Shown here: one piece after another, positions 2,395-30,223 of the stretch
Layout: each line of letters opens with the position of its first letter
Position numbering within the stretch: position 1 is the first letter of the stretch
DNA from: a virus
Virus record (IMG/VR): IMGVR_UViG_3300037473_000101
Span: 1-43,967 of that record
Strand: one strand, 5' to 3'
Length of the DNA: 43,967 nt
Program-made: the position numbers and the translations under genes
Notes under the pieces: model-generated
What the model saw: only the letters and a program-made list of their open reading frames with translations
Database searches by the model: none
What the model was told of the DNA's origin: nothing

Positions 2395-3791
2395 GCCAAA
2401 TCATCCGCATCCCCAACAACTGGAACCCACGTCCGCATCAGCGGAAGCTCTGGGATTACCTGGAAGGCGGAGGGAAGCGAGCCGTCGAGGTGGCCCATCG
2501 TCGGTGGGGAAAGGATGATGTGGCCCTTCATTGGACGTGCAGCCAAGCCCACGAAAAGATTGCCTCATATTGGCATATGTTGCCACTCGCCAACCAGGCA
2601 CGTAAGGCAATTTGGAACGCGGTCAATCCTCACACCGGCATCCGGCGGATTGACGAGGCGTTCCCCCAGGCGCTTCGGGAGTCCACGCAAGATCACGAGA
2701 TGTTCATCCGCTTCAAGTGCGGGTCAACGTGGCAGGTTGTGGGCTCCGACAACTTCGCCGGTCTGGTCGGCTCCCCGCCCTATGGCGTGGTGTTCTCGGA
2801 GTGGTCGCTTGCCGATCCTGAGGCGTGGTCGCAGCTCATGCCGATTCTTAGGGAAAACAAAGGCTGGGCGATCTTCATCTATACGCCGAAAGGCAAGAAC
2901 CACGGCTGGTCCACCCTTAAGCATGCCGAGGCCAACCCGGGCACATGGTTTTGCGAGACGCAGCCGATCAGCGAAACCAAGATGCTGACGGACGAGGAGC
3001 TTGCGGAAGAACTCGGTCAGTACATTTCGCTCTATGGAGAGGACGATGGATGCGCATACTTTGATCAGGAGTATAATTGTTCGTTCAACGCGCCGCTCCT
3101 CGGTAGTTACTACGGATCGTATCTCGGGAAAGCCCGTGCTGAAGGGCGGATCGGTGACGTTCCCTATGAACCCGGCCTACCTGTCTACACTGGGTGGGAT
3201 CTGGGTCGATCTGACGACACAGCCATTTGGTTCGCCCAGCGACTAGGCGTCAACGTCCGGGTGATCGATTACTATCGCTCCTCCGGCCATACCATGGACC
3301 ATTACGCCAAGGTCCTTCAGAGTAAGCCTTACGCCTATGCGCGGCAGGGCCACATCCTGCCGCATGATGGCTCGAACGTGCTCATGCACGCGCCGGACTC
3401 CCTGGCAGCGCAGTTGATGAAGTTCTTCCCCGATGGCGTGACGGTCCTCCCAAACGATGATGTGGAAAAGGGCATCCACGCTGTGCGGCAACTATTGCCA
3501 GTCTGCCACTTCGATGAGGCCAAATGCTCTGACGGGCTTTCCGCTCTCGAATCCTACCATCGGGAATGGGACGACAAGCGCAAGATGTTCAAAGACGTGC
3601 CCTGTCACGACTGGGCATCGCACGCGGCGGATGGGTTCAGGTCTCTAGCTCAGGGCCTCCCAAAGTCCCTTCAGTACGTCCCGCCCAAAGAGCCCGGCCA
3701 CATCATCATCGGGGGCAAGTCCACCATGACCATGGATCAGCTCTGGGCACACCACGATCGCTCGCGTAGGGCCGGGAGAGGGCGTATATGA
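2391..3791 (+). CDS. terL: Terminase large subunit
   Basis: 466 aa. N-terminal ATPase-like segment PRPHQRKLWDYL...HRRWGKDD. Sits between the terS-like gene and the portal. GTG start overlaps the upstream stop. Confidence 0.85.
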   Translation: MSQIIRIPNNWNPRPHQRKLWDYLEGGGKRAVEVAHRRWGKDDVALHWTCSQAHEKIASYWHMLPLANQARKAIWNAVNPHTGIRRIDEAFPQALRESTQDHEMFIRFKCGSTWQVVGSDNFAGLVGSPPYGVVFSEWSLADPEAWSQLMPILRENKGWAIFIYTPKGKNHGWSTLKHAEANPGTWFCETQPISETKMLTDEELAEELGQYISLYGEDDGCAYFDQEYNCSFNAPLLGSYYGSYLGKARAEGRIGDVPYEPGLPVYTGWDLGRSDDTAIWFAQRLGVNVRVIDYYRSSGHTMDHYAKVLQSKPYAYARQGHILPHDGSNVLMHAPDSLAAQLMKFFPDGVTVLPNDDVEKGIHAVRQLLPVCHFDEAKCSDGLSALESYHREWDDKRKMFKDVPCHDWASHAADGFRSLAQGLPKSLQYVPPKEPGHIIIGGKSTMTMDQLWAHHDRSRRAGRGRI

Positions 3792-6241
3792 GCGATAACA
3801 CCAACCCTCCCGTCGTCTCCTCGAAAGACTTCAAAGGCCCGCAAGGTCAGGCCAAGCGATGGAAGGCCGAGGTCGATCTCTTCGAATCCCAACAGGCCAC
3901 GTTCTGGGAGCGCTGTGGGCGTATCGAGAAGCGCTATCGCAATGACACATGGCGGGATGCGGTCGATACCGGGGGTCTCTCGAATGACACCGAGGCAGGA
4001 CGCGGCTTTTCCCTGCTCTGGGCCAACCAACAGACACTCCAACCGATTGTCTATGCCCAGGAGCCGAAGGCCAACGTTCAGAGGCGGTTCAAGGACAGCG
4101 ACCCCGTTGCCCGTGTGGCGGGGATCATCATCGAACGGTGCCTGGACTTCTTTATCGATAAGCCAGATTTCGAGCAGACCACCCGCCAGGGCCGGGACGA
4201 TTACCTGCTCGTTGGCATGGGCGTGCAGTGGCGCCGCTATATCCCGCACATGGCGAACATCGCCAAGCGCGTGGGGGTAAAGCCGACCGAGGCTTTTGTG
4301 GACGACCAGGGCGTACAGATCACCAACGATCCCGCTGGATACAAGGGTGGATATTCCACCGAGGACGGAAGCGCGCTCAGCGACGAGGAGCGCAAGGGCG
4401 TTCAGATCGATGCGGAAGGTCCTTACATCGAACGGGCTGAACAGGCGATCAAGACCGAGGAAGTCTGCCGCGAGCATGTGAATTACCGTGACTTCGGCTG
4501 GTCTCCGGGCGCCAGGACATGGGCTGAAGCTCCGGCAGTATGGCGTAAGGTCTACATGACCAGAGACGCTCTCATAGACCGGTTCGGCAAGGAGAAGGGC
4601 GAGAAGGTCGAATTGGACTTCAAGCCCAAGAATGCCGATGGCAACGGGGTTGAGAAATCGTTCTTCAAGAAAGCGACGATTTACGAGATTTGGGACAAGG
4701 AGACCAAGAAAGTCCATTGGCTCGCCAAGCACTATGACGGCGATCTCCTAGATAGCCGGGACGACCCTCTCGGCATTGATGGGTTTTTCCCCTGCGCCCG
4801 GCCGCTCTTTGCCACGCAGACCACCGATCAAGTCACCCCTGTTCCTGAATATCTCCAGTACCAGGACCAGGCCGAGGAGATGGATAGGCTCACCCAAAAA
4901 GCCTACATCCTCATGGATGCGATCAAGATCCGCGGGCTTTATGCCGGGAATATTCCTGAAGTCCAAAGACTCCTTCAGGACAGCAGCAACCTGGACTTCA
5001 CCCCCGTTGCGGAATCGATTGTCGCCATGTCGTCGGGCGACCTCTCCAAGATGGTGTGGGTGTGGCCGATCAAGGAAGTCGTGGAAGCCCTTGTGGCTGT
5101 GTTGGATGCCAGGGAGCGGGTCAAGCAGGACTCTTACGAAATCACCGGCATTTCGGACATTATCCGGGGGGCAACCGACCCCAACGAAACCCTTGGCGCT
5201 CAGGAACTAAAGGCGCAGACCGGCGCGGTCCGGGTGAAAGATCGTCAGAGGGAAATGCAGCGGTGGATTCGCGACGGTCTCCGGATCGATGCGGATATCA
5301 TCATGAACCACTTCCAGCCCGAGACGATCGCGGACATTGCCGATCTCTCGTCCATCCCCGAGGCGGACTATCGCCAGATCAATGGTGAGTGGAGAGACCC
5401 GGAGACCATGAAGCCGGCCGGCCAGTTGCCGGGCGAGCAACAGCAGATGCCCGCACAGGGCATGCCGCCCGGCGCGCCGACTATGGGCCAGCAGCAGCCC
5501 ATGCCGCCTCTTCCAGGCGTCCCACAGGGGATTCCGATCCAAGGCCCGACCTTGGGCGAAGCAGCCATTATGCTGCTCAAGAACAAATCCCAGCGAAAGT
5601 TCCGCATCGATATCGAGACGGACTCCACGGTCCAGTTGGATCAGGCGCAGGAGAAGCAGGACCGCTCGGAGCTGGTCGCGTCCCTGACGCAGTTCTTTAC
5701 GGCTATTGCGCCGATTGTCGAAGCCCAGCCCGTCACGCTCCCCATGTTCCGGGAGATCCTGCTCTTTGCCGTCCGAGGCTTCAAGGCCGGGGCATCGCTT
5801 GAGGGCATGATCGAATCCACCATGGAGGCGCTGGGTAACCAGCCGCCGAAGCAGCAGGCCCCTGACCCGGCCGTGATCAAAGCTCAGGCTGAGATTGAGA
5901 ACACGAAACTGCAAGGCCAGATCGCCCAGCAACAGGCGCAGACCGAGCAGCGGCGCAGCCAGGTCGAGCTTCAGAACGACCAAGCCCGCATGGCGATGGA
6001 GCAGCAGCAGAGCCGGGAAGAACTTCAGCACGAGCGCGAGAAGAACCGGATGGAGATCATCAAGATTTTCACCGAGCTGATGGCCGAACGCGAGCGGGCA
6101 CAGCTTGACCATGCGGTTGCCCAGGGTAATGCCGCCAACCAGCAGCAGTTGGGCGAGATGAAGCTGGACCACGCCAAGCAGCTAGGCGCGATCAAGCAGA
6201 AGCAGGCAGCGAAACCCAAGCCGAATGGAGCGCAGAAGTGA
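3788..6241 (+). CDS. Portal protein (817 aa) with a P/Q-rich insert and a long Q-rich C-terminal coiled coil
   Basis: ATGA overlap with terL. Size and position fit a portal. Low-complexity stretch GQLPGEQQQMPAQGMPPGAPTMGQQQPMPPLPGVPQG. C-terminal tail rich in Q and E. Confidence 0.8.
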   Translation: MSDNTNPPVVSSKDFKGPQGQAKRWKAEVDLFESQQATFWERCGRIEKRYRNDTWRDAVDTGGLSNDTEAGRGFSLLWANQQTLQPIVYAQEPKANVQRRFKDSDPVARVAGIIIERCLDFFIDKPDFEQTTRQGRDDYLLVGMGVQWRRYIPHMANIAKRVGVKPTEAFVDDQGVQITNDPAGYKGGYSTEDGSALSDEERKGVQIDAEGPYIERAEQAIKTEEVCREHVNYRDFGWSPGARTWAEAPAVWRKVYMTRDALIDRFGKEKGEKVELDFKPKNADGNGVEKSFFKKATIYEIWDKETKKVHWLAKHYDGDLLDSRDDPLGIDGFFPCARPLFATQTTDQVTPVPEYLQYQDQAEEMDRLTQKAYILMDAIKIRGLYAGNIPEVQRLLQDSSNLDFTPVAESIVAMSSGDLSKMVWVWPIKEVVEALVAVLDARERVKQDSYEITGISDIIRGATDPNETLGAQELKAQTGAVRVKDRQREMQRWIRDGLRIDADIIMNHFQPETIADIADLSSIPEADYRQINGEWRDPETMKPAGQLPGEQQQMPAQGMPPGAPTMGQQQPMPPLPGVPQGIPIQGPTLGEAAIMLLKNKSQRKFRIDIETDSTVQLDQAQEKQDRSELVASLTQFFTAIAPIVEAQPVTLPMFREILLFAVRGFKAGASLEGMIESTMEALGNQPPKQQAPDPAVIKAQAEIENTKLQGQIAQQQAQTEQRRSQVELQNDQARMAMEQQQSREELQHEREKNRMEIIKIFTELMAERERAQLDHAVAQGNAANQQQLGEMKLDHAKQLGAIKQKQAAKPKPNGAQK

Positions 6242-6444
6242 GCGAGCCGATTGATATGGCAGAATGGCGCAAGTGGTTTGCATCCTCCCATGAAGAGGAT
6301 GCCGGGATGCTAGAGGCATTCCTATCGCTCTCGGCCGAAGAGCGCATAGAACTCCTATTCTACATGATCGTGAGCCAAGGTGACATTTCGGCGCGCCGTA
6401 TCCGCGCGGCTCAAGACGTTGCCATCGCGGCTTTCAATGCATAA
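6238..6444 (+). CDS. Hypothetical protein (68 aa)
   Basis: GTGA overlap with the portal stop inside the repeated 13-mer AGAAGTGAGCGAG. Confidence 0.55.
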   Translation: MSEPIDMAEWRKWFASSHEEDAGMLEAFLSLSAEERIELLFYMIVSQGDISARRIRAAQDVAIAAFNA

Positions 6445-6489
6445 GCACCGCTACTTCTACACCGTCAACGGCAAGCGGGAGAAAAGGCT

Positions 6490-6642
6490 ATGACATTCCG
6501 CGAATACTACTACCAGCAGCACTCCGAGGTGACGCCCGGTAACTTCGGCATCAATGAGGACGAGCTGCGGGACCTGATCCTGCGGTTTATGGTCACCCTG
6601 GCGGATTACCTTGAACTGCCGCCCGAAGACCCCAATGCGTAA
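6490..6642 (+). CDS. Hypothetical protein (50 aa)
   Basis: ATG preceded by GGGAGAAAAGG. MTFREYYYQQHSEVTPGNFGINEDELRDLILRF... Not in the ORF track because it is under 60 aa. Confidence 0.45.
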   Translation: MTFREYYYQQHSEVTPGNFGINEDELRDLILRFMVTLADYLELPPEDPNA

Positions 6643-8090: not shown

Positions 8091-9062
8091 ATGGCTTCAC
8101 CCGGACTCTCGGAAATCGTCACCACCACGCTTCGCAACCGCCAGCCCACCATCGCCGACAACGTTCTGAATAACAACGCCCTGCTTCTGAAGATGAAGCG
8201 CGGCGGGAACGTGCGCCCCTTCTCGGGCGGCCGGACCATGGTGGAACCGCTCTATTGGGCGGAAAACAGCACCTACACCCGGTACTCCGGCTATGACGTG
8301 CTGAACATCAACCCATCGGACGTGATCTCTGCGGCGGAATACGACCTGAAGCAGGCCGCCGTCGCCGTCTCGATCTCCGGCCTCGAGGAATACCAGAACC
8401 AGGGCGAAGAGGCGGTTCTCGACCTCCTCGGCTCCCGCATCGAGAACGCCGAGACCACCATGCAGAACGGCATTTCGTCCGATCTCTATTCGGACGGAAC
8501 CGCGGATGGCGGCAAGCAGATCGGCGGCCTTCAGCTCATCGTCGCCGACACTAACACCAACACGGTCGGCGGCATATCGGCCTCGACCTATTCCTTCTGG
8601 CGCAACGTCAGTTTTGACGCGACCACGGACGGCGGCGCGGCCGTTTCGCCGGCCAACATCGGCGATTACATGATGAGGGTCTATCAGCAGCTCAAGCGAG
8701 GTGTTGACGGCCCGAACCTCATCATCGCCGACAACAACTATTACCGCGCCTACTGGGAAAGCCTTACGGCGATCCAGCGCATCACGTCCGACAAGGACCT
8801 TGCGTCCCTGGGCTTCACCAACATCGATTTCATGGGCTCGCCTGTGGTCATGGACGGTGGAATCGGCGGCGCGTGCCCGACCAACCACATGTACTTCCTC
8901 AATACCAAGTACATGAAGTACCGCCCCGCCACGGGTCGGAACATGGACGCGATTGCGCCCGACCGCTTCAGCATCAACCAAGACGCCATGGTCAAACTGA
9001 TCGGCTGGATGGGCAACATGGTTGCCTCCGGCCGGAAGTTCCAGGGCGTCTTGAAGGATTAA
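8091..9062 (+). CDS. Major capsid protein
   Basis: 323 aa. N-terminus SEIVTTTLRNRQPTIADNVLNNNALL is typical of podophage HK97-fold capsid proteins. Position after the scaffold. Stop TAA at 9060-9062. Confidence 0.8.
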   Translation: MASPGLSEIVTTTLRNRQPTIADNVLNNNALLLKMKRGGNVRPFSGGRTMVEPLYWAENSTYTRYSGYDVLNINPSDVISAAEYDLKQAAVAVSISGLEEYQNQGEEAVLDLLGSRIENAETTMQNGISSDLYSDGTADGGKQIGGLQLIVADTNTNTVGGISASTYSFWRNVSFDATTDGGAAVSPANIGDYMMRVYQQLKRGVDGPNLIIADNNYYRAYWESLTAIQRITSDKDLASLGFTNIDFMGSPVVMDGGIGGACPTNHMYFLNTKYMKYRPATGRNMDAIAPDRFSINQDAMVKLIGWMGNMVASGRKFQGVLKD

Positions 9063-9083
9063 GCGCGGGAAAGGAACAGGAAA

Positions 9084-9614
9084 ATGAGCAGCTACTTCTC
9101 AATCGAAAACCGCGCCGGGGTTGGCTATGGCACCGGCTTTGCCGATGTCAGCTCGACGCAGGGTCCCTATGGCTTGGGAACGATTCTTCGAGCCAAGGAC
9201 AGCGCGACCACGGCTCTTGGTGTGGGCGAGTTCATCTATCTGCTCTGCACCTCCGCCACCGTCGTTGGCTCTCTGGTCACCTACGACCAGGCCCAGGGCC
9301 TCGCGGCGCCGGTCTCGACCACCACGGAACGTTCGGGCCGCCCGGTTGCCGTTGCCATGGCGGCGGCTGCTGCTGGTCAATACTTCTGGGGCCAAATCGA
9401 CGGCGTCGCGGTCATGGCAAAGGGCGTCGTGGACTTCCCCACGGCTTCCCCGATCTACCGCTCCGGCGTCACGGCGGGGTACATCACCGTCACGGCGGCC
9501 TCCGGAAACCAGGTCTTGGGAGCGGTGACGGCCAATTCGTCCTCGGTCTCCTCGACCACCTCGCTCATCAACGTGCAGATCAATCGTCCGCACCTCCAGG
9601 GCCAGATCTCTTAA
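9084..9614 (+). CDS. Capsid cement/decoration-like protein (DUF2190-like pattern)
   Basis: 176 aa directly after the capsid gene. G/A/V-rich beta pattern RPVAVAMAAAAAGQYFWGQIDGVAVMAKG. In the same frame as the capsid gene, separated by TAA plus 7 sense codons. Confidence 0.55.
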   Translation: MSSYFSIENRAGVGYGTGFADVSSTQGPYGLGTILRAKDSATTALGVGEFIYLLCTSATVVGSLVTYDQAQGLAAPVSTTTERSGRPVAVAMAAAAAGQYFWGQIDGVAVMAKGVVDFPTASPIYRSGVTAGYITVTAASGNQVLGAVTANSSSVSSTTSLINVQINRPHLQGQIS

Positions 9615-10453
9615 TGGACCTGGACGCCATCCACATCGACTTTGAAGCGGGGGAGGGCGTCGCCTCGGTGGCGCCCTCCCTTACCCCGCTTCAGATCAAT
9701 GTCACCTGCAACACCAGCGGGGACATCACCCGGGAACACGTGAAGGCGAACAGCGCGCGGCCCATCCCTGTCGTTACCGTTCTGGAAGAAAACACCCGCC
9801 ACGCCGTCATTGTCGGGGGTGGCCCGTCGCTCAAAACCAACTGGACTGAAATCCTCGGCTGGATCGCGAGAGGGGCAGATGTGTTCGCGCTCAACGGCGC
9901 GGCGGAGTTCCTGAACGATAGGGGCGTTCTTCCGACCTACCAAGTCGTGGTGGACCCCCGGGAGACCAATGTCTCTTTGGTCGGCTTGGCGAGAAGCTAT
10001 CTCATCGCCTCGCAGTGCCACCCCGCCGTGTTCGAAGTCGCTCCGGCTCATCGGGTTGGGCTTTTCCACATGTACGGCTCGGCCAACGGATTGGTGGACG
10101 GGACCCTGATCGGCGGGGATGTGACCGTGGGTCTCGTCGCCCCCAATCTCGCCTACACCCTCGGTTACCGACAGATCCATCTCTATGGCTACGACTCCTC
10201 GTATGCGGATGGCGAGCACCACGCTTACCCGCAGGACCAGTCCGAGCAGGAAAGCAAGCGGCTGGAAGTGTTCACTATCGTCAACGGGGAAAAGCAGCCG
10301 TTCACGACGAATTTCGCGATGGCGAAGCAAGCAGAATTGTTTCCGAAGACCATGCAAACGCTCTGCGAGGCCGGCGCCGTCATCACTGTGCATGGAACGG
10401 GACTCATCCCGTCCATCGCTCAATCAATGCTGAAAGCCAAAGCGGCGGAATAG
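9614..10453 (+). CDS. DUF115 / Maf (MptE-like) Rossmann-fold protein, putative glycosyltransferase
   Basis: ATG at 9614 overlaps the upstream TAA. Motifs AVIVGGGPSL, ADVFALNGAAEFLNDRGVLPTYQVVVDPRE and IGGDVTVGLVAPNLAYTLGYRQIHLYGYDSSYADGEHHAY. The listed 526-aa ORF from 8873 is an upstream extension through the capsid gene. Confidence 0.6.
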   Translation: MDLDAIHIDFEAGEGVASVAPSLTPLQINVTCNTSGDITREHVKANSARPIPVVTVLEENTRHAVIVGGGPSLKTNWTEILGWIARGADVFALNGAAEFLNDRGVLPTYQVVVDPRETNVSLVGLARSYLIASQCHPAVFEVAPAHRVGLFHMYGSANGLVDGTLIGGDVTVGLVAPNLAYTLGYRQIHLYGYDSSYADGEHHAYPQDQSEQESKRLEVFTIVNGEKQPFTTNFAMAKQAELFPKTMQTLCEAGAVITVHGTGLIPSIAQSMLKAKAAE

Positions 10454-26784: not shown

Positions 26785-26964
26785 CTTACCCTCCCTTAAG
26801 AATGCTGCGGGCCGGTTGGATTCAAACCAACGTGAGTCCCGATCCCTCGGGTCTCCGGGCGCGTTGCCCGGCGCATTCGTTCGCTCTGCCACAGTCCGCA
26901 GCATTGACCGGCGAACCGATCCCGAGTATTGTACGGACACGCTGACTCAGACGCAAGGGCAATC

Positions 26965-27787: not shown

Positions 27788-28004
27788 GTGACACAGCAGA
27801 TGAGCGACGCTCTTCAGTTCACCATCAACTTCACCCGCGCCTCAGACGGCCGGATCAAGGCCAAGAGCCCCGATGTGCCGGGGCTATTCCTCCCCCTACG
27901 ATTTCGACGCTCTCTGCCGAGACCTATCGATAAGCGTTCGGGACCTGTTGCGCGAGAACCGCGGAATCGATCTCGCCAACTCCACCAAAGGCAACACCCC
28001 CTAG
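27788..28004 (+). pseudogene. DUF1902 / HicB-fold protein gene with an apparent +1 frameshift in a C5 run
   Basis: Frame A gives MSDALQFTINFTRASDGRIKAKSPDVPGLFL up to CCCCC at 27892-27896. The family-like continuation YDFDALCRDLSISVRDLLRENRGIDL... is in the next frame and ends at TAG 28002-28004. As listed, the uninterrupted ORF runs 27788-28018. Confidence 0.5.
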
Positions 28005-28012
28005 CCCCCATC

Positions 28013-28245
28013 TCATAGAGCTTCATCGAGACGGGTATGGCGCGGGTAGCGGTTCTGCATTAGCAACTGTCGGGCACCGCAAAAGCAGCGCCGCCGATAA
28101 TCCTCCTCAACCCAGTTATGTACATGGCGCGGACTTAAGGCTCGCCGGAATAGGGTAGTGCAATCGGGGTGGATGGCGTAAATAGCTGGTTCGCCTCGAA
28201 GCGCTTCGCTGCGGCATCCTGGGTCGATAGCTGGAACTTAGCCAC
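28013..28245 (-). pseudogene. Small HTH-like gene split between two frames (apparent -1 frameshift)
   Basis: GGAGG plus GTG at 28245 opens MAKFQLSTQDAAAKRFEANQ..., which stops at TAA 28135-28137. A start-less overlapping frame continues AIYAIHPDCTTLFRRALSPRHVHNWVEEDYRRRCFCGARQLLMQNRYPRH to TGA 28013-28015. Confidence 0.35.
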
Positions 28246-28266
28246 GCAGTCCTCCAATTTCAGAGT

Positions 28267-28303
28267 CTACTTGTACAAGTAGCGGCCCTACTTGATCAAG
28301 TAG
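28267..28303. promoter_or_regulatory. Two tandem perfect 16-bp palindromes (operator pair)
   Basis: CTACTTGTACAAGTAG at 28267-28282 and CTACTTGATCAAGTAG at 28288-28303, with centres 21 bp apart, just upstream of the minus-strand gene starting at 28245. Confidence 0.6.
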
Positions 28304-28489
28304 GGGTGTTATTTGATGGGTAAATTGATAAAAATACTTGACGCTAAGCATCAAATGGCGTCACCGGCCATGTGTGGTCGATTAAGGAAATTGTGGCGCT
28401 GGCGGATGCCGCCTATGCCGCGCCGAAGTCGCGCGGACCGTATAAGAAGCGGGCGCAGGGGTAGATTGCTGGATCCCTGTGAAGAAAGT

Positions 28490-28576
28490 TGTGGATAACG
28501 TGTGGGTAACTCCTGTGGATAACTATAGATACGGTATATCCACAGAATTTAGCACCAAATGTTGATTTGTGGATCG
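28490..28576. promoter_or_regulatory. Cluster of five DnaA-box-like 9-mers (putative replication origin or DnaA-controlled region)
   Basis: TGTGGATAA at 28490-28498, TGTGGGTAA at 28501-28509, TGTGGATAA at 28514-28522, ATATCCACA at 28536-28544 (opposite orientation) and TGTGGATCG at 28568-28576. Consensus is TTATCCACA / TGTGGATAA. Confidence 0.6.
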
Positions 28577-28588
28577 CCAGGGATCTTG

Positions 28589-28605
28589 CTTCTCGAATCG
28601 AGAAG
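28589..28605. promoter_or_regulatory. 17-bp perfect palindrome centred on a GANTC (CcrM-type) site
   Basis: CTTCTCGAATCGAGAAG, with GAATC at 28595-28599. Confidence 0.5.
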
Positions 28606-28612
28606 AGGCATG

Positions 28613-28641
28613 AATCAAAACACCCCGCTTTTGGCGGGGTG
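28613..28641 (-). terminator. Rho-independent terminator-like hairpin (functional on the minus strand)
   Basis: CACCCCGC-TTTTG-GCGGGGTG at 28621-28641. On the minus strand it is followed by TTTTGATT. Confidence 0.45.
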
Positions 28642-28647
28642 CTCTGT

Positions 28648-28747
28648 GGAAGTGTGGCAGAGTGGTTTATCGCAGCGGTCTTTAAAACCGTCGGGGGAAC
28701 GCCCGTCAAAGTCAGTACCCCCGTGGGTTCGAATCCCACCACTTCCG
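28648..28747 (+). tRNA. Type II (Ser-like) tRNA with anticodon UUA, a putative ochre suppressor, and an unusually long variable region
   Basis: Acceptor GGAAGTG/CACTTCC and discriminator G. T arm GTGGG-TTCGAAT-CCCAC. Anticodon arm GCGGT-CTTTAAA-ACCGT with U33 and A37, so positions 34-36 are TTA. Variable region is 31 nt. The D stem has one A.C mismatch. CCA is not encoded (CCG follows). Confidence 0.7.
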
Positions 28748-28758
28748 CCGTCTACCAG

Positions 28759-28790
28759 GGGCGGTCCCTTCGGGGGCCGCCCTTTCTCTT
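28759..28790 (+). terminator. Rho-independent terminator downstream of the tRNA
   Basis: GGGCGGTCCC-TTCG-GGGGCCGCCC (10-bp stem with one G.U pair, TTCG tetraloop) followed by TTTCTCTT. Confidence 0.7.
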
Positions 28791-28922
28791 ATCCTAGACT
28801 CACAGCAACCCGTTAACGCAAGGTTAATCCGAGTCGGTCAATGCCGAATCTTGAGCCCTTTCGACTCGCGTTTCAAGGCGGATCTCGTCAGAATTTGACG
28901 AAATCTGACGGATTTCGCCGGA

Positions 28923-29096
28923 ATGCCCGACAAACCAAAAGAAATACGCTTCACCGTTTCTGCGACTCTGCACGCTTATCTAGAGCGGCTTGCCGAGAAG
29001 ACCGTGCTTGGCAAAACGGCGAACGATGTGGCGCAGCAAATCCTTACTCAGCAACTCGCGCTGATGCGGCAGGAAGACTATTCCGAGAAAGTATAA
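28923..29096 (+). CDS. Ribbon-helix-helix-like small protein (57 aa)
   Basis: MPDKPKEIRFTVSATLHAYLERLAEKTVLGKTANDVAQQILTQQL fits a strand-helix-helix pattern. Repeated TGACG/CGTCA elements lie at 28886-28910 just upstream. Under the ORF-track cutoff. Confidence 0.4.
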   Translation: MPDKPKEIRFTVSATLHAYLERLAEKTVLGKTANDVAQQILTQQLALMRQEDYSEKV

Positions 29097-29105
29097 GATC
29101 GCGCG

Positions 29106-29168
29106 GTGCGGGCCGTTGGGGCGGTCGGTTTCATTAGCTGTCCGCAGGTTCGAGCCCTGCTCCGCACG
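29106..29168 (+). other. tRNA-like remnant (acceptor stem and T arm intact, body too short)
   Basis: GTGCGGG...GCAGG-TTCGAGC-CCTGC-TCCGCAC-G. Only 31 nt lie between the acceptor 5' strand and the T arm, so the D arm and/or anticodon arm cannot both form. Confidence 0.4.
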
Positions 29169-29299
29169 TCACTGCGGGCGCGCATACCCCGTCATTCAAT
29201 CCCATGCCAACCGGCATACCCCCTCAATTCAAACTAAGACACTACCCGGAATAGGGAGACTATATTTTCCATAACGAGTGCGTCCTTCCGAATCGCTGT

Positions 29300-29656
29300 C
29301 TAGTGGCCGATGATTTCCGCTATCCGCCGCAGCAGCTCCGGGGCAGGCTCGAACCACTCGCCACGGAGCCGGTAGCGGGTAAATTCCCGGTGCAGGGCGG
29401 CTTCCCGCAGCCTGCCGCCATGGACGGCCCCGAGGAGCGTCAGGGCCTCATGGTGGACGCCCTGGATCAGCCGCATCCGGTCGCGGGGATCGATGGCGAT
29501 GCCGATCTTGATCGGCCCGCTGGCGCTCTGGATGAAATAGACTAGCTTGGCGCGGCGCACCTTGCGCCCGGCCGCCAAGTCCTCGCGCTCAAGGCCCTTA
29601 TAGGCTCGCTCGTACTCTCGGGTGAGCAGGGCCTCCGGGTGCTTCCTTCTTTCCAT
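29300..29656 (-). CDS. T5orf172 / MUG113 (GIY-YIG-like) domain protein
   Basis: KLVYFIQSASGPIKIGIAIDPRDRMRLIQ...GGRLREAALHREFTRYRLRGEWF. ATG at 29656 chosen within ORF 29300-29737. Confidence 0.65.
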   Translation of the reverse strand: MERRKHPEALLTREYERAYKGLEREDLAAGRKVRRAKLVYFIQSASGPIKIGIAIDPRDRMRLIQGVHHEALTLLGAVHGGRLREAALHREFTRYRLRGEWFEPAPELLRRIAEIIGH

Positions 29657-29804
29657 AATCACCACACACTTGGTTTCTGGTCGGTGTGAGCCGTTTCGTC
29701 TACCTGTAGGAGCGAACTGCACAGGAACGATAATCACAGGGTAAATTGACTAAGCAGCTTAGAATCTTGCGACTCTTACAATGTTGCGGGTGCGGTCAAA
29801 AACG

Positions 29805-29843
29805 CGTTCGCATAATGTATATTAGTTGAAGATTATGGAAAAT
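29805..29843. other. dif-like XerC/XerD recombination site
   Basis: CGTTCGCATAA-TGTATA-TTAGTTGAAGA followed by TTATGGAAAAT. Positions 29809-29824 (CGCATAATGTATATTA) are identical to the core of E. coli dif, GGTGCGCATAATGTATATTATGTTAAAT. Confidence 0.6.
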
Positions 29844-29893
29844 ATCAACATCTAGTAGGTCTTTAACATTGTTTCCTATTTACAGGTGAGGGG

Positions 29894-30223
29894 TTAGCCC
29901 TCGTCCTTGATCCTCGGGTACATGCCGTTCTTGTAGGCCCCTCCGTGCATCTGGCGGATCTGGTTGTTCACTGCGGCGATCTCGTGCTTGATCGCCATGA
30001 GCTGAGTATACTCGTCCAGGTCGGTGCGGCGAGCGGTGAAAGCGAGTTGTTCGGCTAGGCCGGCGAGGAGGGGAGCGATCTTCCGAATCAGATGCACGTC
30101 ATTGAACGGAATCTGAAGCCGCCCCGATGCCCCGATAAGCTCGCGCTTCCAGGCGGGCATCTCATCGAACTGCGAGGCCCTGCGGCGTTTGTCCATCACT
30201 TCCTCAGGCGTAATCTGGACCAT
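29894..30223 (-). CDS. Hypothetical protein (109 aa), last gene of the long minus-strand operon
   Basis: ORF with an ATG start, co-oriented with the early block. Confidence 0.6.
   Translation of the reverse strand: MVQITPEEVMDKRRRASQFDEMPAWKRELIGASGRLQIPFNDVHLIRKIAPLLAGLAEQLAFTARRTDLDEYTQLMAIKHEIAAVNNQIRQMHGGAYKNGMYPRIKDEG

Follow-up and report, generated by a model that had tools for sequence, protein, structure and literature searches.

The analysed window is the whole 43,967-nucleotide stretch of IMG/VR virus record IMGVR_UViG_3300037473_000101. Within it, a predicted serine-type tRNA gene with an ochre anticodon lies 184 nt downstream of the relic of an insertion sequence (IS) transposase gene and just upstream of a small gene encoding a 57-amino-acid protein. 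The tRNA and this partner gene occupy the zone in which late and early transcription of the podovirus-like phage converge, and the G+C content of positions 28001-30000 is 0.552, compared with 0.59-0.63 elsewhere in the genome. The features of the locus are the following:

28337-28464, plus strand: IS1-family transposase gene, preserved as a relic (matches to the IS1-like cluster C2 by hmmsearch and tblastn; promoter motif shared with intact loci)
28490-28575, no strand assigned: DnaA-box-like 9-mers, TGTGGATAA twice, TGTGGGTAA, inverted TATCCACA, and TGTGGATCG (direct repeat family D2, inverted repeat I3)
28616-28646, no strand assigned: GC-rich hairpin CACCCCGC-TTTTG-GCGGGGTG, preceded by an A-run and abutting the 5′ end of the tRNA (inverted repeat I7)
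28648-28747, plus strand: Ser-type tRNA gene with anticodon UUA (RF00005, minimum-free-energy cloverleaf, family covariation, BLAST neighbours)
28680-28686, plus strand: anticodon loop CTTTAAA with U33, anticodon TTA (28682-28684), A37 and A38 (read from the sequence; placed in the loop by the Rfam alignment)
28692-28722, plus strand: variable region of 31 nt, with a base helix GGGG(G)/(C)CCCC round an apical segment of ~22 nt that carries an AAAGTC motif (minimum-free-energy fold, family comparison)
28757-28794, plus strand: intrinsic terminator of the tRNA gene, a 12-pair stem (stem region 28757-28784) followed by a T-rich tail
28923-29096, plus strand: gene for a 57-aa protein of strand-helix-helix topology (homologues directly downstream of tRNA(UUA) at loci L302, L143, L138, L146 and L256/L272)

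The Rfam tRNA model RF00005 matches 28648-28747 of the plus strand end to end (52.4 bits, E 1.5e-8 for the whole window), covering model positions 1-71 of 71 and scoring far above the gathering threshold of 29. This covariance-model check, proposed in an earlier sequence-only reading of the window, also places the anticodon UUA in the loop. The minimum-free-energy fold is a cloverleaf with canonical 7/5 acceptor and T stems. The acceptor stem pairs GGAAGTG with CACTTCC and is followed by G73 at 28747, the anticodon arm reads GCGGT-CTTTAAA-ACCGT and the T arm GTGGG-TTCGAAT-CCCAC, and all universal tRNA positions are present and undamaged. The D arm (GCAG/TCGC) contains an A12.C23 mismatch and a G13.U22 pair. 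The 3′ flank is CCG, and CCA is therefore not encoded. All elements listed in the sequence-only reading were recovered where it had placed them, including the 31-nt length of the variable region; however, the short hairpin with a 17-nt tail that it had drawn there is better replaced by a GGGG/CCCC base helix enclosing ~22 nt. The tRNA sequence is identical in an independent Logan assembly, and the other assemblies of this phage that were found are all 100% identical.

The identity set of E. coli tRNA-Ser comprises G73, G2:C71, A3:U70 and C11:G24, all of which are present in the phage tRNA along with the long variable arm. Together with the 7-bp acceptor, the 5-bp T stem and the single unpaired nucleotide between the long variable arm and the T stem, these features place it on the bacterial type-II tRNA-Ser scaffold. 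Its phage BLAST neighbours are all annotated as tRNA-Ser. Colinearity of the 5′ half with E. coli tRNA-Ser(UGA), stated in the sequence-only reading, was verified against an annotated E. coli gene, as was the single anticodon-loop difference, G35 to U (CTTGAAA in E. coli and CTTTAAA in the phage). The anticodon is UUA and not NGA or GCU, as serine isoacceptors would have; the tRNA is therefore Ser-type by scaffold and not a reader of serine codons. UUA occupies a 7-nt loop (CUUUAAA) with U33 and a purine at position 37, the arrangement characteristic of an ochre suppressor. The Ser and Leu scaffolds are the two whose synthetases ignore the anticodon, and the proposed combination of a Ser-type scaffold with UUA is supported. 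Judged by its sequence, the phage gene is intact and specifies a serine-type tRNA with an ochre anticodon, a predicted suppressor.

The terminator assigned to the tRNA in the sequence-only reading (28759-28790) is real and begins at 28757. On the other side of the gene, the hairpin at 28616-28646 resembles a terminator when read on the minus strand, and a plus-strand transcript would carry it as a leader hairpin. Most family members have an equivalent hairpin ahead of the tRNA, with a median minimum free energy of -25.4 kcal/mol versus -15.4 and -17.3 kcal/mol in control regions. A sigma-70 consensus scan found no promoter for the tRNA. The stable 5′ hairpin and the flanking terminators suggest restrained expression. 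The 9-mer cluster between the IS relic and the tRNA, putative DnaA boxes by comparison with the known consensus TTATCCACA, may mark a regulatory or origin region.

ARAGORN, run with default settings, missed the phage tRNA, so this proposed check returned no call for the gene itself; relatives with shorter variable regions were nevertheless called 'tRNA-Stop (tta)'. The program fails at variable regions of ~30 nt or more, and its failure on the phage tRNA is attributable to the length of this region. When introns were allowed, ARAGORN proposed Ser(tga) with a 13-nt intron; we rejected this model, in which the anticodon stem is poorer than in the canonical fold. Another ARAGORN call, 'tRNA-Arg(acg)' at 26806-26899 of the minus strand, was also rejected, as it has an 8-bp acceptor with a mismatch, lacks U33 and has no Rfam match at E <= 1.

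Pattern scans of metagenomes, species genomes and viral contigs retrieved more than 180 type-II tRNA(UUA) genes, including genes in 64 of ~185,000 species genomes, mostly Alphaproteobacteria. The hosts are Alphaproteobacteria and other bacteria, mostly of soil, sediment and freshwater, and occasionally phages. The family spans Ser-like (G73) and Leu-like (A73) scaffolds and appears to be previously undescribed and widely scattered; the literature searched gave no account of an IS-linked tRNA(UUA) family. The long-arm Ser-like set contains 34 distinct sequences with variable regions of 24-34 nt and the same GGGG/CCCC base helix. Across 36 long-variable-arm sequences, 95% of positions assigned to pairs are paired, the 7/5 stems reach 99.6% and 99.4%, and RNAalifold recovers the cloverleaf unaided from the family alignment. 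Compensatory changes occur at 10 cloverleaf pairs, a level reached by 0 of 500 shuffles, and five of the seven acceptor pairs covary. The base helix of the variable arm is present in all 36 members around an apex of variable length with a conserved purine-rich motif. G1:C72 and G2:C71 never vary, 29 of 36 members have A3:U70 and 33 of 36 have C11:G24, and CCA is encoded in roughly half of the long-arm members listed. These comparisons indicate that the long-arm tRNA(UUA) family is under selection. Conservation of the anticodon is partly circular, as the retrieval pattern fixes UUA and part of the anticodon stem. The sole anticodon-free scan, confined to IMG/VR, returned a long-arm relative with anticodon CCU, and the long-arm scaffold is therefore not restricted to UUA.

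IS1-like or IS1595-like genes were found within 4 kb of tRNA(UUA) at 68 of 118 informative loci, and conserved cassette blocks at other loci have one edge at the tRNA and the other at the transposase stop codon. Ser-like and Leu-like tRNA(UUA) genes have the same neighbour families, and the UUA anticodon is their common denominator. In the phage, the internally deleted IS gene retains the promoter-region motif acTTGACGCTAAGCAT, which runs straight into the gene's last ~35 codons; the frame is open from 28348 and ends ...GVTGHVWSIKEIVALADAAYAAPKSRGPYKKRAQG*. The tblastn match to cluster C2 covers 28357-28455 (67% identity over 33 aa, E 1e-5), and C2 itself matches Pfam DDE_Tnp_IS1 and NCBIfam IS1. 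This IS1-like relic just upstream, and the link to a mobile family with IS1/IS1595-type transposase genes, had been missed by the sequence-only reading. No terminal inverted repeats or target-site duplications were identified; within the window the evidence consists of the IS relic, while adjacency and block edges come from other loci. The location of the tRNA beside the deleted relic points to acquisition by the phage with such a mobile cassette. P0002, a protein 79% identical to the 57-aa partner, is encoded downstream of an IS1595 transposase gene. In the phage, repeats occur at 28880-28915. AlphaFold models the 57-aa protein as two helices after an extended N-terminal segment (pLDDT 75), and the model has no significant PDB neighbour. 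Neither this protein nor the neighbour clusters C4, C1 and C10 gave a significant match in Pfam, NCBIfam or PADLOC; PHROGs gave weak or unknown-function matches only for C4 and C1. A search of the cassette genes for read-through signals, at stop codons and at the C4-C2 junction, gave nothing convincing, and an apparent excess of in-frame TAA upstream of C2 stems from the conserved promoter motif TTGACGCTAAGCAT.

The exact anticodon-arm sequence had no match in IMG/VR, a looser UUA pattern retrieved three viral contigs from that database, none of them long-armed, and a long-arm motif scan of it found nothing. PLSDB plasmids contained no close relative of the tRNA, a megablast search of 50,697 phage records for relatives of the phage yielded nothing useful, and IMG/VR scans with two flanking proteins gave domain-level matches or none. 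ARAGORN found no such tRNA in the cultured relative ppBjS10J-1. The suggested survey for the same anticodon came out negative for the nearest cultured relatives examined and positive for bacteria and the three viral contigs.

The 77 phage genes end in TGA (50), TAA (about 19) or TAG (8). As claimed before, TAA is an ordinary stop, terminating capsid, scaffold and other genes, and there is no genome-wide recoding: no gene contains an in-frame TAA, and TAA remains a regular terminator. Moreover, the standard code gives clean translations for the 52 external gene calls, and none of the genes was found to be split. A search for signs of adaptation to suppression, such as tandem stops and short extensions, was negative: there are no back-up stops after genes ending in TAA, and extensions after TAA are neither shorter nor longer than after other stops. 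The earlier suggestion that the capsid gene is read through into the gene downstream (8091-9614; downstream part 9084-9614) was not borne out, as the second gene is equipped with a ribosome-binding site and an ATG of its own. An in-frame passage from capsid to next gene without an intervening stop occurs in three of seven relatives, about as expected by chance, and no read-through target was identified in the phage. An efficient suppressor would extend 19 phage proteins, the major capsid protein among them, with no back-up stops to compensate.

Several known systems resemble the phage tRNA in part. Laboratory serine suppressors derived from tRNA-Ser include the E. coli supD/serU amber suppressor and phage T4 psu1+, and ochre suppressors are known more generally. 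As in these, one anticodon base is changed to read a stop, and since SerRS ignores the anticodon, charging should not be impaired. However, they are laboratory-selected single mutants of sense tRNAs, whereas the phage tRNA belongs to a family that is natural, diverged and covarying, has an enlarged variable arm and sits in a gene neighbourhood of its own. Bacterial tRNA-Sec likewise has a long variable arm, is charged by SerRS and decodes a stop codon, but its 8/5 geometry, 6-bp D stem, anticodon UCA and need for SelA, SelB and SECIS do not apply here, where the geometry is 7/5, the D stem has four positions and the anticodon is UUA. To our knowledge, TAA has not been reassigned in bacteria or phages. 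The T4 UAG suppressor (cited in PMC8386662) shares with the present tRNA that it is phage-borne. Allo-tRNAs (Mukai et al. 2017, PMC5389517) are Ser-type long-arm tRNAs of soil bacteria and phages with unorthodox anticodons, including UUA and those for the Arg codons AGA/AGG; they often adjoin transposon-related or toxin-antitoxin genes, and some are active suppressors in E. coli. They are, however, defined by 8/4 or 9/3 acceptor/T stems, in contrast to the canonical 7/5 of the phage tRNA and its family, and the phage tRNA cannot form an eighth or ninth acceptor pair (T8.C65, G9.A64). Neither the enlarged variable-arm apex nor the IS1/IS1595 linkage is described for allo-tRNAs in PMC5389517. 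The suppressors of recoded phages (crAss-like, Lak and others; bioRxiv 10.1101/2021.08.26.457843; PMC9523058) are also phage-encoded stop readers, but they read TAG or TGA present in many in-frame copies, whereas TAA is used here only as a stop; the phage recoding survey reported only TAG and TGA recoding (bioRxiv 10.1101/2021.08.26.457843). Finally, tRNA-Sup-TTA has been predicted in cultured phages such as Klebsiella phage phiKp24 (PMC8386662). It too is a computationally predicted UUA tRNA of no known function in a phage with the standard code, but it is described as having arginine identity, belongs to a large tRNA-rich phage, and comes with no reported family, covariation or mobile-element link.

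The phage tRNA is probably a SerRS-charged, low-level suppressor of UAA (and UAG) that was acquired with a mobile cassette, the family as a whole probably being horizontally mobile. In such cassettes, tRNA(UUA) would be accompanied by IS1-family or IS1595-family transposase genes and by genes for small DNA-binding-like proteins. The transcript would be processed by RNase P and completed by CCA addition, after which seryl-tRNA synthetase, recognising the acceptor stem, G73 and the long variable arm, would charge it regardless of the anticodon. A37 would presumably be isopentenylated in its A36-A37-A38 context. RF1 and RF2 would then face competition from Ser-tRNA(UUA) at UAA and, through wobble, also at UAG, resulting in partial read-through with serine insertion and not in recoding. 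Because the capsid, scaffold and tail genes of the phage end in TAA, the suppressor would need to be weak, which restrained expression would fit.

It is very improbable that the gene is instead a decaying pseudogene of a phage tRNA-Ser(UGA) with an anticodon mutation and a variable-arm insertion. The anticodon loop one base away from Ser(UGA), the D-stem mismatch and the missing ARAGORN call could all be read in this way, and the sequence-only reading had suspected decay. The same features are nevertheless found in 35 other distinct covarying sequences, with A12.C23 itself in 12 of the 36 long-arm members, and the phage copy shows compensatory changes of its own in the acceptor stem (GGAAGTG/CACTTCC versus GGAGGCG/CGCCTCC). 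With the universal positions undamaged, the Rfam score far above threshold and the ARAGORN failure accounted for by variable-region length, the comparative data already contradict this view; the phage tRNA looks like a selected mobile stop-codon reader and not a decaying gene. Still less credible, to the point of being nearly negligible, is that the phage reassigns TAA to serine or that the tRNA gene is an integration site (attP). Although tRNA genes are the integration sites of many temperate phages, no integrase was found in the regions examined. Other phages that recode TAG or TGA do carry suppressor tRNAs (bioRxiv 10.1101/2021.08.26.457843). Recoding of this kind would place the cognate stop in frame inside many genes and deplete it as a terminator; here, 19 well-supported genes end in TAA, none is interrupted by it, and three in-frame neighbouring genes each start from their own ribosome-binding site.

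A tRNA-shaped RNA acting outside decoding is rather unlikely, yet deserves more weight. It could serve as a decoy or replacement substrate for tRNA-targeting toxins, for example nucleotidyltransferases that attack tRNA-Ser via its long arm, or anticodon nucleases; alternatively, it could be a regulatory or structural RNA of the cassette itself. In both versions, to which the estimate applies jointly, the stop anticodon would simply prevent interference with sense decoding. The tight, repeated linkage to transposase genes and small DNA-binding-like proteins, the position exactly at the conserved cassette end, the purine-rich apex and the relative with anticodon CCU are consistent with such a role, for which the many transposon- or toxin-antitoxin-associated allo-tRNAs that are inactive in translation offer a precedent (PMC5389517). 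However, the 7/5 geometry, the full Ser or Leu identity sets, U33, A36-A37-A38 and the CCA encoded in about half of the long-arm members listed suit a decoding tRNA and exceed what a decoy needs, and PADLOC, Pfam and NCBIfam recognised no toxin or defence gene beside the tRNA. Somewhat less probable is a suppressor that works but merely hitch-hikes, having entered a non-essential intergenic zone by an IS-type insertion at no benefit or at slight cost. The adjacent deleted relic, the lower regional G+C, the absence of such a tRNA from ppBjS10J-1 by ARAGORN, the IMG/VR results and the lack of a read-through target would all fit. Against this, only a relic is left of the transposase, but the tRNA is intact, as are its terminator and the partner gene, and the lineage-specific compensatory pairs argue for retention under selection after arrival. 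The phage copy may also be a recent passenger with no role in infection.

A further proposal, more tentative and on balance unlikely, is that type-II ochre tRNAs are deliberate, selected cargo of IS1-/IS1595-linked cassettes and occasionally of phages, tuning UAA termination for the benefit of the element. A scaffold recognisable by SerRS or LeuRS in any host would suit such cargo, with the leader hairpin throttling expression and the enlarged, purine-bearing apex of the variable arm serving as a handle for a dedicated partner protein. One benefit might be that element or host genes are read through conditionally, another that defences acting at stop codons or on tRNA-Ser are evaded.

Natural ochre suppressors are rare, and a mobile family of Ser- and Leu-type tRNA(UUA) genes would show that the capacity for stop-codon read-through is traded between genomes. 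It would provide a system for asking why mobile elements carry suppressors, how high-G+C hosts tolerate them and what the extra-long arm does, and genetic-code engineering might draw on its members as natural UAA-reading scaffolds. The family is probably under-annotated, being largely invisible to ARAGORN beyond an arm of ~30 nt. For this phage, suppression could result in C-terminally extended virion proteins.

The gene at 28648-28747 (plus strand) reads GGAAGTG-TG-GCAG-AGTGGTTTA-TCGC-A-GCGGT-CTTTAAA-ACCGT-[31 nt]-GTGGG-TTCGAAT-CCCAC-CACTTCC-G and is the sole Rfam match within the 44-kb window, matching the tRNA covariance model over its full length at 52.4 bits (E 1.5e-8; gathering score 29). 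The cloverleaf is the minimum-free-energy fold of the 100-nt tRNA (-36.4 kcal/mol, z = -2.35), and the sequence has U8, A14, G15, G18G19, the T54-loop TTCGAAT and a C with which G15 can form the G15:C48 pair. An annotated E. coli tRNA-Ser is colinear with it over the 5' half, and the anticodon loops differ only in CTTGAAA (E. coli) versus CTTTAAA (window). A previous reading of this DNA from sequence alone (the sequence-only reading) had described a Ser-type tRNA with anticodon UUA, its 5' half nearly colinear with E. coli tRNA-Ser and its anticodon one base different, followed by its own terminator, all of which proved correct:

28682-28684, plus strand: anticodon UUA, in a loop with U33, A37 and A38
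28757-28784, plus strand: terminator of 12 pairs, 3' of the tRNA

The tRNA sequence is identical in an independent Logan assembly from another run. ARAGORN did not call the gene at default settings and forced a poorer model on it with introns allowed. Among the relatives, the program reports 'tRNA-Stop (tta)' for shorter variable regions and drops those of ~30 nt or more; therefore, the miss reflects a length limit of the program and not a defect of the gene. ARAGORN also proposed a 94-nt 'tRNA-Arg(acg)' at 26806-26899 (minus strand), in a gap between divergent genes. This candidate is probably a false positive: its 8-bp acceptor contains a mismatch, its D stem has 3 bp, U33 is absent, the variable arm is long, and Rfam gave no match at E <= 1.

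The unexpected result is a mobile tRNA(UUA) family to which this gene belongs. A pattern of GGTCTTTAAAACC, 15-45 nt and GGTTCRAATCC (UUA anticodon arm, long variable region and T loop) matched 3 viral contigs, at least 120 metagenomic stretches and 64 GTDB one-genome-per-species records. The GTDB matches were mostly from Alphaproteobacteria (Hyphomicrobiales, Rhodospirillales, Parvibaculum and the isolate Methyloligella solikamskensis), and the remainder from some Acidobacteria, Gammaproteobacteria and others. Once acceptor stems were defined, three classes could be distinguished among the matches listed: (i) Leu-like genes with A73 (85 genes); (ii) Ser-like genes with G73 and ordinary variable arms (46 genes); and (iii) Ser-like genes with variable regions of 24-34 nt (37 genes, 34 distinct sequences), the long-arm class, which includes the window tRNA. 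Its best match is 84% identical, and the relative at locus L150 has the same acceptor stem. The retrieval pattern fixes UUA and cannot itself demonstrate conservation of that anticodon; what is independent of the pattern is the gene neighbourhood. An anticodon-free scan of IMG/VR returned one long-arm relative, with the anticodon CCU, besides two Ser(UGA) genes of the ordinary kind; the scaffold is therefore not exclusively ochre.

Covariation was analysed in an alignment of 36 long-arm sequences, across which the canonical cloverleaf is 95% paired. Double-sided pair changes numbered 10, versus 3.3 +/- 1.2 after shuffling (0 of 500 shuffles reached 10); five of the seven acceptor pairs covary, and the signal was lost when the 3' partners were slid. 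RNAalifold, unaided, recovered the same cloverleaf. G1:C72 and G2:C71 are invariant and A3:U70 and C11:G24 nearly so, while G73 is fixed by the definition of the class. Every long-arm variable region has a GGGG/CCCC base helix, with a single C between it and the T stem, and an apex that ranges from a 6-7-nt loop (L266, L269 and L323, the last a phage Ser(UGA) gene) up to 26 nt and usually carries a purine-rich RAAAGYC-like motif. In 32 sampled phage Ser(UGA) genes that share this anticodon stem, the variable region never exceeds 23 nt. The suggestion that the window gene is decaying, made from its D-stem mismatch and oversized variable region, is not upheld: A12.C23 occurs in 12 of the 36 members and the large variable arm is a trait of the covarying family. 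The alternative folding proposed for that region, a CGGG/CCCG hairpin with a 17-nt tail, is not conserved; the proximal CCC is absent from several members.

Open reading frames within 4 kb of each tRNA(UUA) gene were clustered into families, four of which recur at 40-43 loci each among the matches listed:

C1, ~79 aa: sole match a PHROG of unknown function
C2, ~290 aa: Pfam DDE_Tnp_IS1 and NCBIfam IS1 family
C3, ~300-380 aa: Zn_ribbon_IS1595 and DDE_Tnp_IS1595 (E 2e-34)
C4, ~265 aa: winged-helix-like N terminus; no significant match in Pfam, NCBIfam or PADLOC

A C2 or C3 transposase gene lies within 4 kb of the tRNA at 68 of the 118 loci having at least 2 kb of flank, among the matches listed, and this linkage is present in all three tRNA classes. 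The Ser-like classes show the order C2(-), C4(-), tRNA(+), C1(-), and the conserved DNA extends between the C2 stop codon and the 3' end of the tRNA, or as far as C1. The Leu-like class shows tRNA(+), C2(+); here conservation begins with the first tRNA base and ends with the C2 stop codon, at ~65% identity between loci with unrelated flanks. The order C3(+), tRNA(+) was also seen (L302 and L318). Near-identical tRNA(UUA) genes occur in different genera, which, together with these stereotyped blocks, implies mobile cassettes with the tRNA at one end. Inverted repeats and target duplications of the cassettes were not found, so the tRNA may lie inside the element or just beside it. A two-gene block from -1074 to +169 relative to the tRNA, in which C4 is transcribed divergently from it, is conserved in unrelated flanks at L257, L292, L296 and ~40 other loci, and the C4 stop codon is often directly followed by an IS1-like gene that has a TTGACG...CATATA promoter of its own.

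In most loci a stable hairpin abuts the tRNA 5' end. The median minimum free energy of positions -70 to -1 is -25.4 kcal/mol, versus -15.4 and -17.3 in control regions, and values of -20 kcal/mol or below occur in 92% of the long-arm class versus 35% of controls; compensatory changes were seen in the stem in one subgroup. An A-run usually precedes the hairpin, making it terminator-like on the minus strand. As the hairpin leaves no space for a promoter adjoining the tRNA, the gene must be transcribed through it.

C1, C3 and C4 are absent from the window. A relic of C2 is present at 28337-28464 as an internally deleted IS1-family transposase gene, in which the promoter-region motif runs straight into the final ~35 codons; the frame is open from 28348 and lacks a start codon. 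The segment 28357-28455 matches C2 in tblastn with 67% identity over 33 aa (E 1e-5), and the relic points to an earlier IS insertion in this phage. Beyond the relic, 184 nt separate it from the start of the tRNA, which comes after a cluster of 9-mers and the 5' hairpin (28616-28646):

28337-28353: conserved C2 promoter-region motif acTTGACGCTAAGCAT, 5' end of the relic
28462-28464: TAG stop of the relic, whose peptide ends in GVTGHVWSIKEIVALADAAYAAPKSRGPYKKRAQG
28490 and 28514: DnaA-box-like 9-mer TGTGGATAAC
28501: DnaA-box-like 9-mer TGTGGGTAAC
28537: inverted DnaA-box-like 9-mer TATCCACAG
28567: DnaA-box-like 9-mer TGTGGATCG
28923-29096, plus strand: 57-aa gene, downstream of the tRNA

At six other loci, both Ser-like and Leu-like, a homologue of the 57-aa gene immediately follows tRNA(UUA) (phmmer E 1e-8, 1e-5 and 3e-3; jackhmmer E 1e-22 to 1e-26). 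The only close homologue in a database of 5.8 billion proteins, P0002 (79% identical), is encoded 447 nt downstream of an IS1595-family transposase gene, a gap into which a tRNA would fit. The protein is modelled as an extended N-terminal segment and two helices (pLDDT 75), a predicted topology compatible with a ribbon-helix-helix fold, and the model has no significant PDB neighbour. Short inverted and direct repeats (GTCAGAATTTGAC, GAAATCTGACGGATTTC) at 28880-28915, just upstream of the gene, are possibly operator sites for it. The tRNA could be a pure passenger with no role. The transposase gene has decayed, whereas the tRNA, terminator and 57-aa gene are intact and the tRNA shows its own compensatory acceptor pairs; in our reading, the intact parts came in with a cassette and were then kept by selection. 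A selected, functional tRNA(UUA) gene is very probable.

The window is a tailed-phage genome (terminase, 817-aa portal and major head protein by PHROGs). No near relative was found in the phage collection; among cultured phages the nearest, although distant, are Bradyrhizobium phage ppBjS10J-1 (portal 38% identical), Brucella Tb-like phages and Mx8. These relatives and a GcrA-family gene on the source contig suggest an alphaproteobacterial host. No integrase was found in the regions examined. Around the tRNA, ~900 nt are poor in genes, and of all 2-kb windows of the genome the one that includes it has the lowest G+C (0.552); the region is bounded by plus-strand genes ending at 28018 and minus-strand early genes ending at 29300. 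The 9-mer cluster (28490-28575) could be an origin of the phage, a site that titrates DnaA, or a promoter under DnaA control. Two operator-like 16-nt palindromes, CTACTTGTACAAGTAG and CTACTTGATCAAGTAG, stand in tandem 21 nt apart at 28267-28303, and CTACTTGATCAAGTAG is also scored as a terminator-like hairpin.

In the ~77 genes of the window (built with 52 external gene calls as the training set), the stop codons are TGA (50), TAA (19) and TAG (8). Scaffold, capsid and several virion genes terminate in TAA, the extension past it (median 36 codons) is no shorter than past TGA or TAG, and no gene in the set is split by an in-frame TAA. The phage is thus not recoded, as the sequence-only reading had held, and shows no sign of adaptation to suppression. 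Three genes ending in TAA share the frame of the gene that follows, which in each case has its own ribosome-binding site:

8091-9614: capsid, then 176-aa virion protein
6238-6642: 68 aa, then 50 aa
37144-37833, minus strand: 79 aa, then 142 aa

Such arrangements are as frequent after TGA and TAG as after TAA. Read-through of the capsid stop had been suggested, the capsid gene (8091-9062) being in frame with 9084-9614 (PHROG virion structural protein match). The downstream gene also has its own ATG. The capsid stop is TAA in six of seven related phages, and TAA is the usual stop for highly expressed genes; the following gene is in frame without an intervening stop in three of the seven only (the window phage, ppBjS10J-1 and Brucella Tb), close to chance expectation. 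Capsid read-through may still occur but has no comparative support.

The window thus holds an intact canonical UUA tRNA with serine-type identity elements, from a covarying mobile family, in a phage that is not recoded. SerRS and LeuRS ignore the anticodon, and exactly those two scaffolds are found among the tRNA(UUA) genes. A36-A37-A38 is the isopentenylation context for A37 in tRNAs reading U-starting codons, and a U34-U35-A36 tRNA reads UAA, and UAG by wobble. The tRNA would be charged with serine and would let some ribosomes read through UAA and UAG. Because UAA is recognised by both release factors, ochre suppressors are weak; expression of the tRNA may be held low by the leader hairpin and flanking terminators. 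At the sequence level, the proposal of a candidate ochre suppressor on a Ser chassis is supported, and suppression in infected cells is somewhat favoured. Read-through might provide extended isoforms of phage proteins or disturb termination in the host; alternatively, the tRNA may act outside decoding, as a decoy for toxins targeting tRNA-Ser or within the cassette itself.

Judged from its sequence, the tRNA would be a variant form of natural nonsense-suppressor tRNA. In the literature covered, which is incomplete, we found no description of a tRNA(UUA) family with canonical geometry, an enlarged variable arm and IS1/IS1595-type linkage. The nearest concept is that of allo-tRNAs, Ser-type long-arm tRNAs of soil bacteria and phages with anticodons including UUA and those for Arg AGA/AGG, often near transposon or toxin-antitoxin genes (PMC5389517). 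However, allo-tRNAs are defined by an 8/4 or 9/3 geometry that the present family lacks. In recoded phages, the suppressor tRNAs read TAG or TGA, and in-frame stops abound in the genomes, unlike in the window phage. For Klebsiella phage phiKp24, a 'tRNA-Sup-TTA' was predicted without further analysis. The CCU relative (L322, IMGVR_UViG_3300037143_000028, 3775-3871, minus strand) reads the Arg codon AGG and is possibly a natural missense tRNA putting Ser at AGG, paralleling the allo-tRNA anticodon repertoire. A 110-kb viral contig (IMGVR_UViG_3300021400_000154) carries, near 2428-2444 on the minus strand, a Ser-like type-II tRNA with the amber anticodon CUA and a D arm almost identical to that of the window tRNA.

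Two further genes of the phage were observed. The last gene of the minus-strand early block, facing the tRNA module (29300-29656, minus strand), encodes a T5orf172/MUG113 (GIY-YIG-like) domain protein; such domains are often tied to mobile or homing elements. The other gene (9614-10453) has a Pfam MptE-like domain, annotated on the source contig, and a weak PHROGs match to a sialyltransferase-like family; it immediately follows the gene for the capsid-associated protein within the head genes, an unusual place for an enzyme of this kind.
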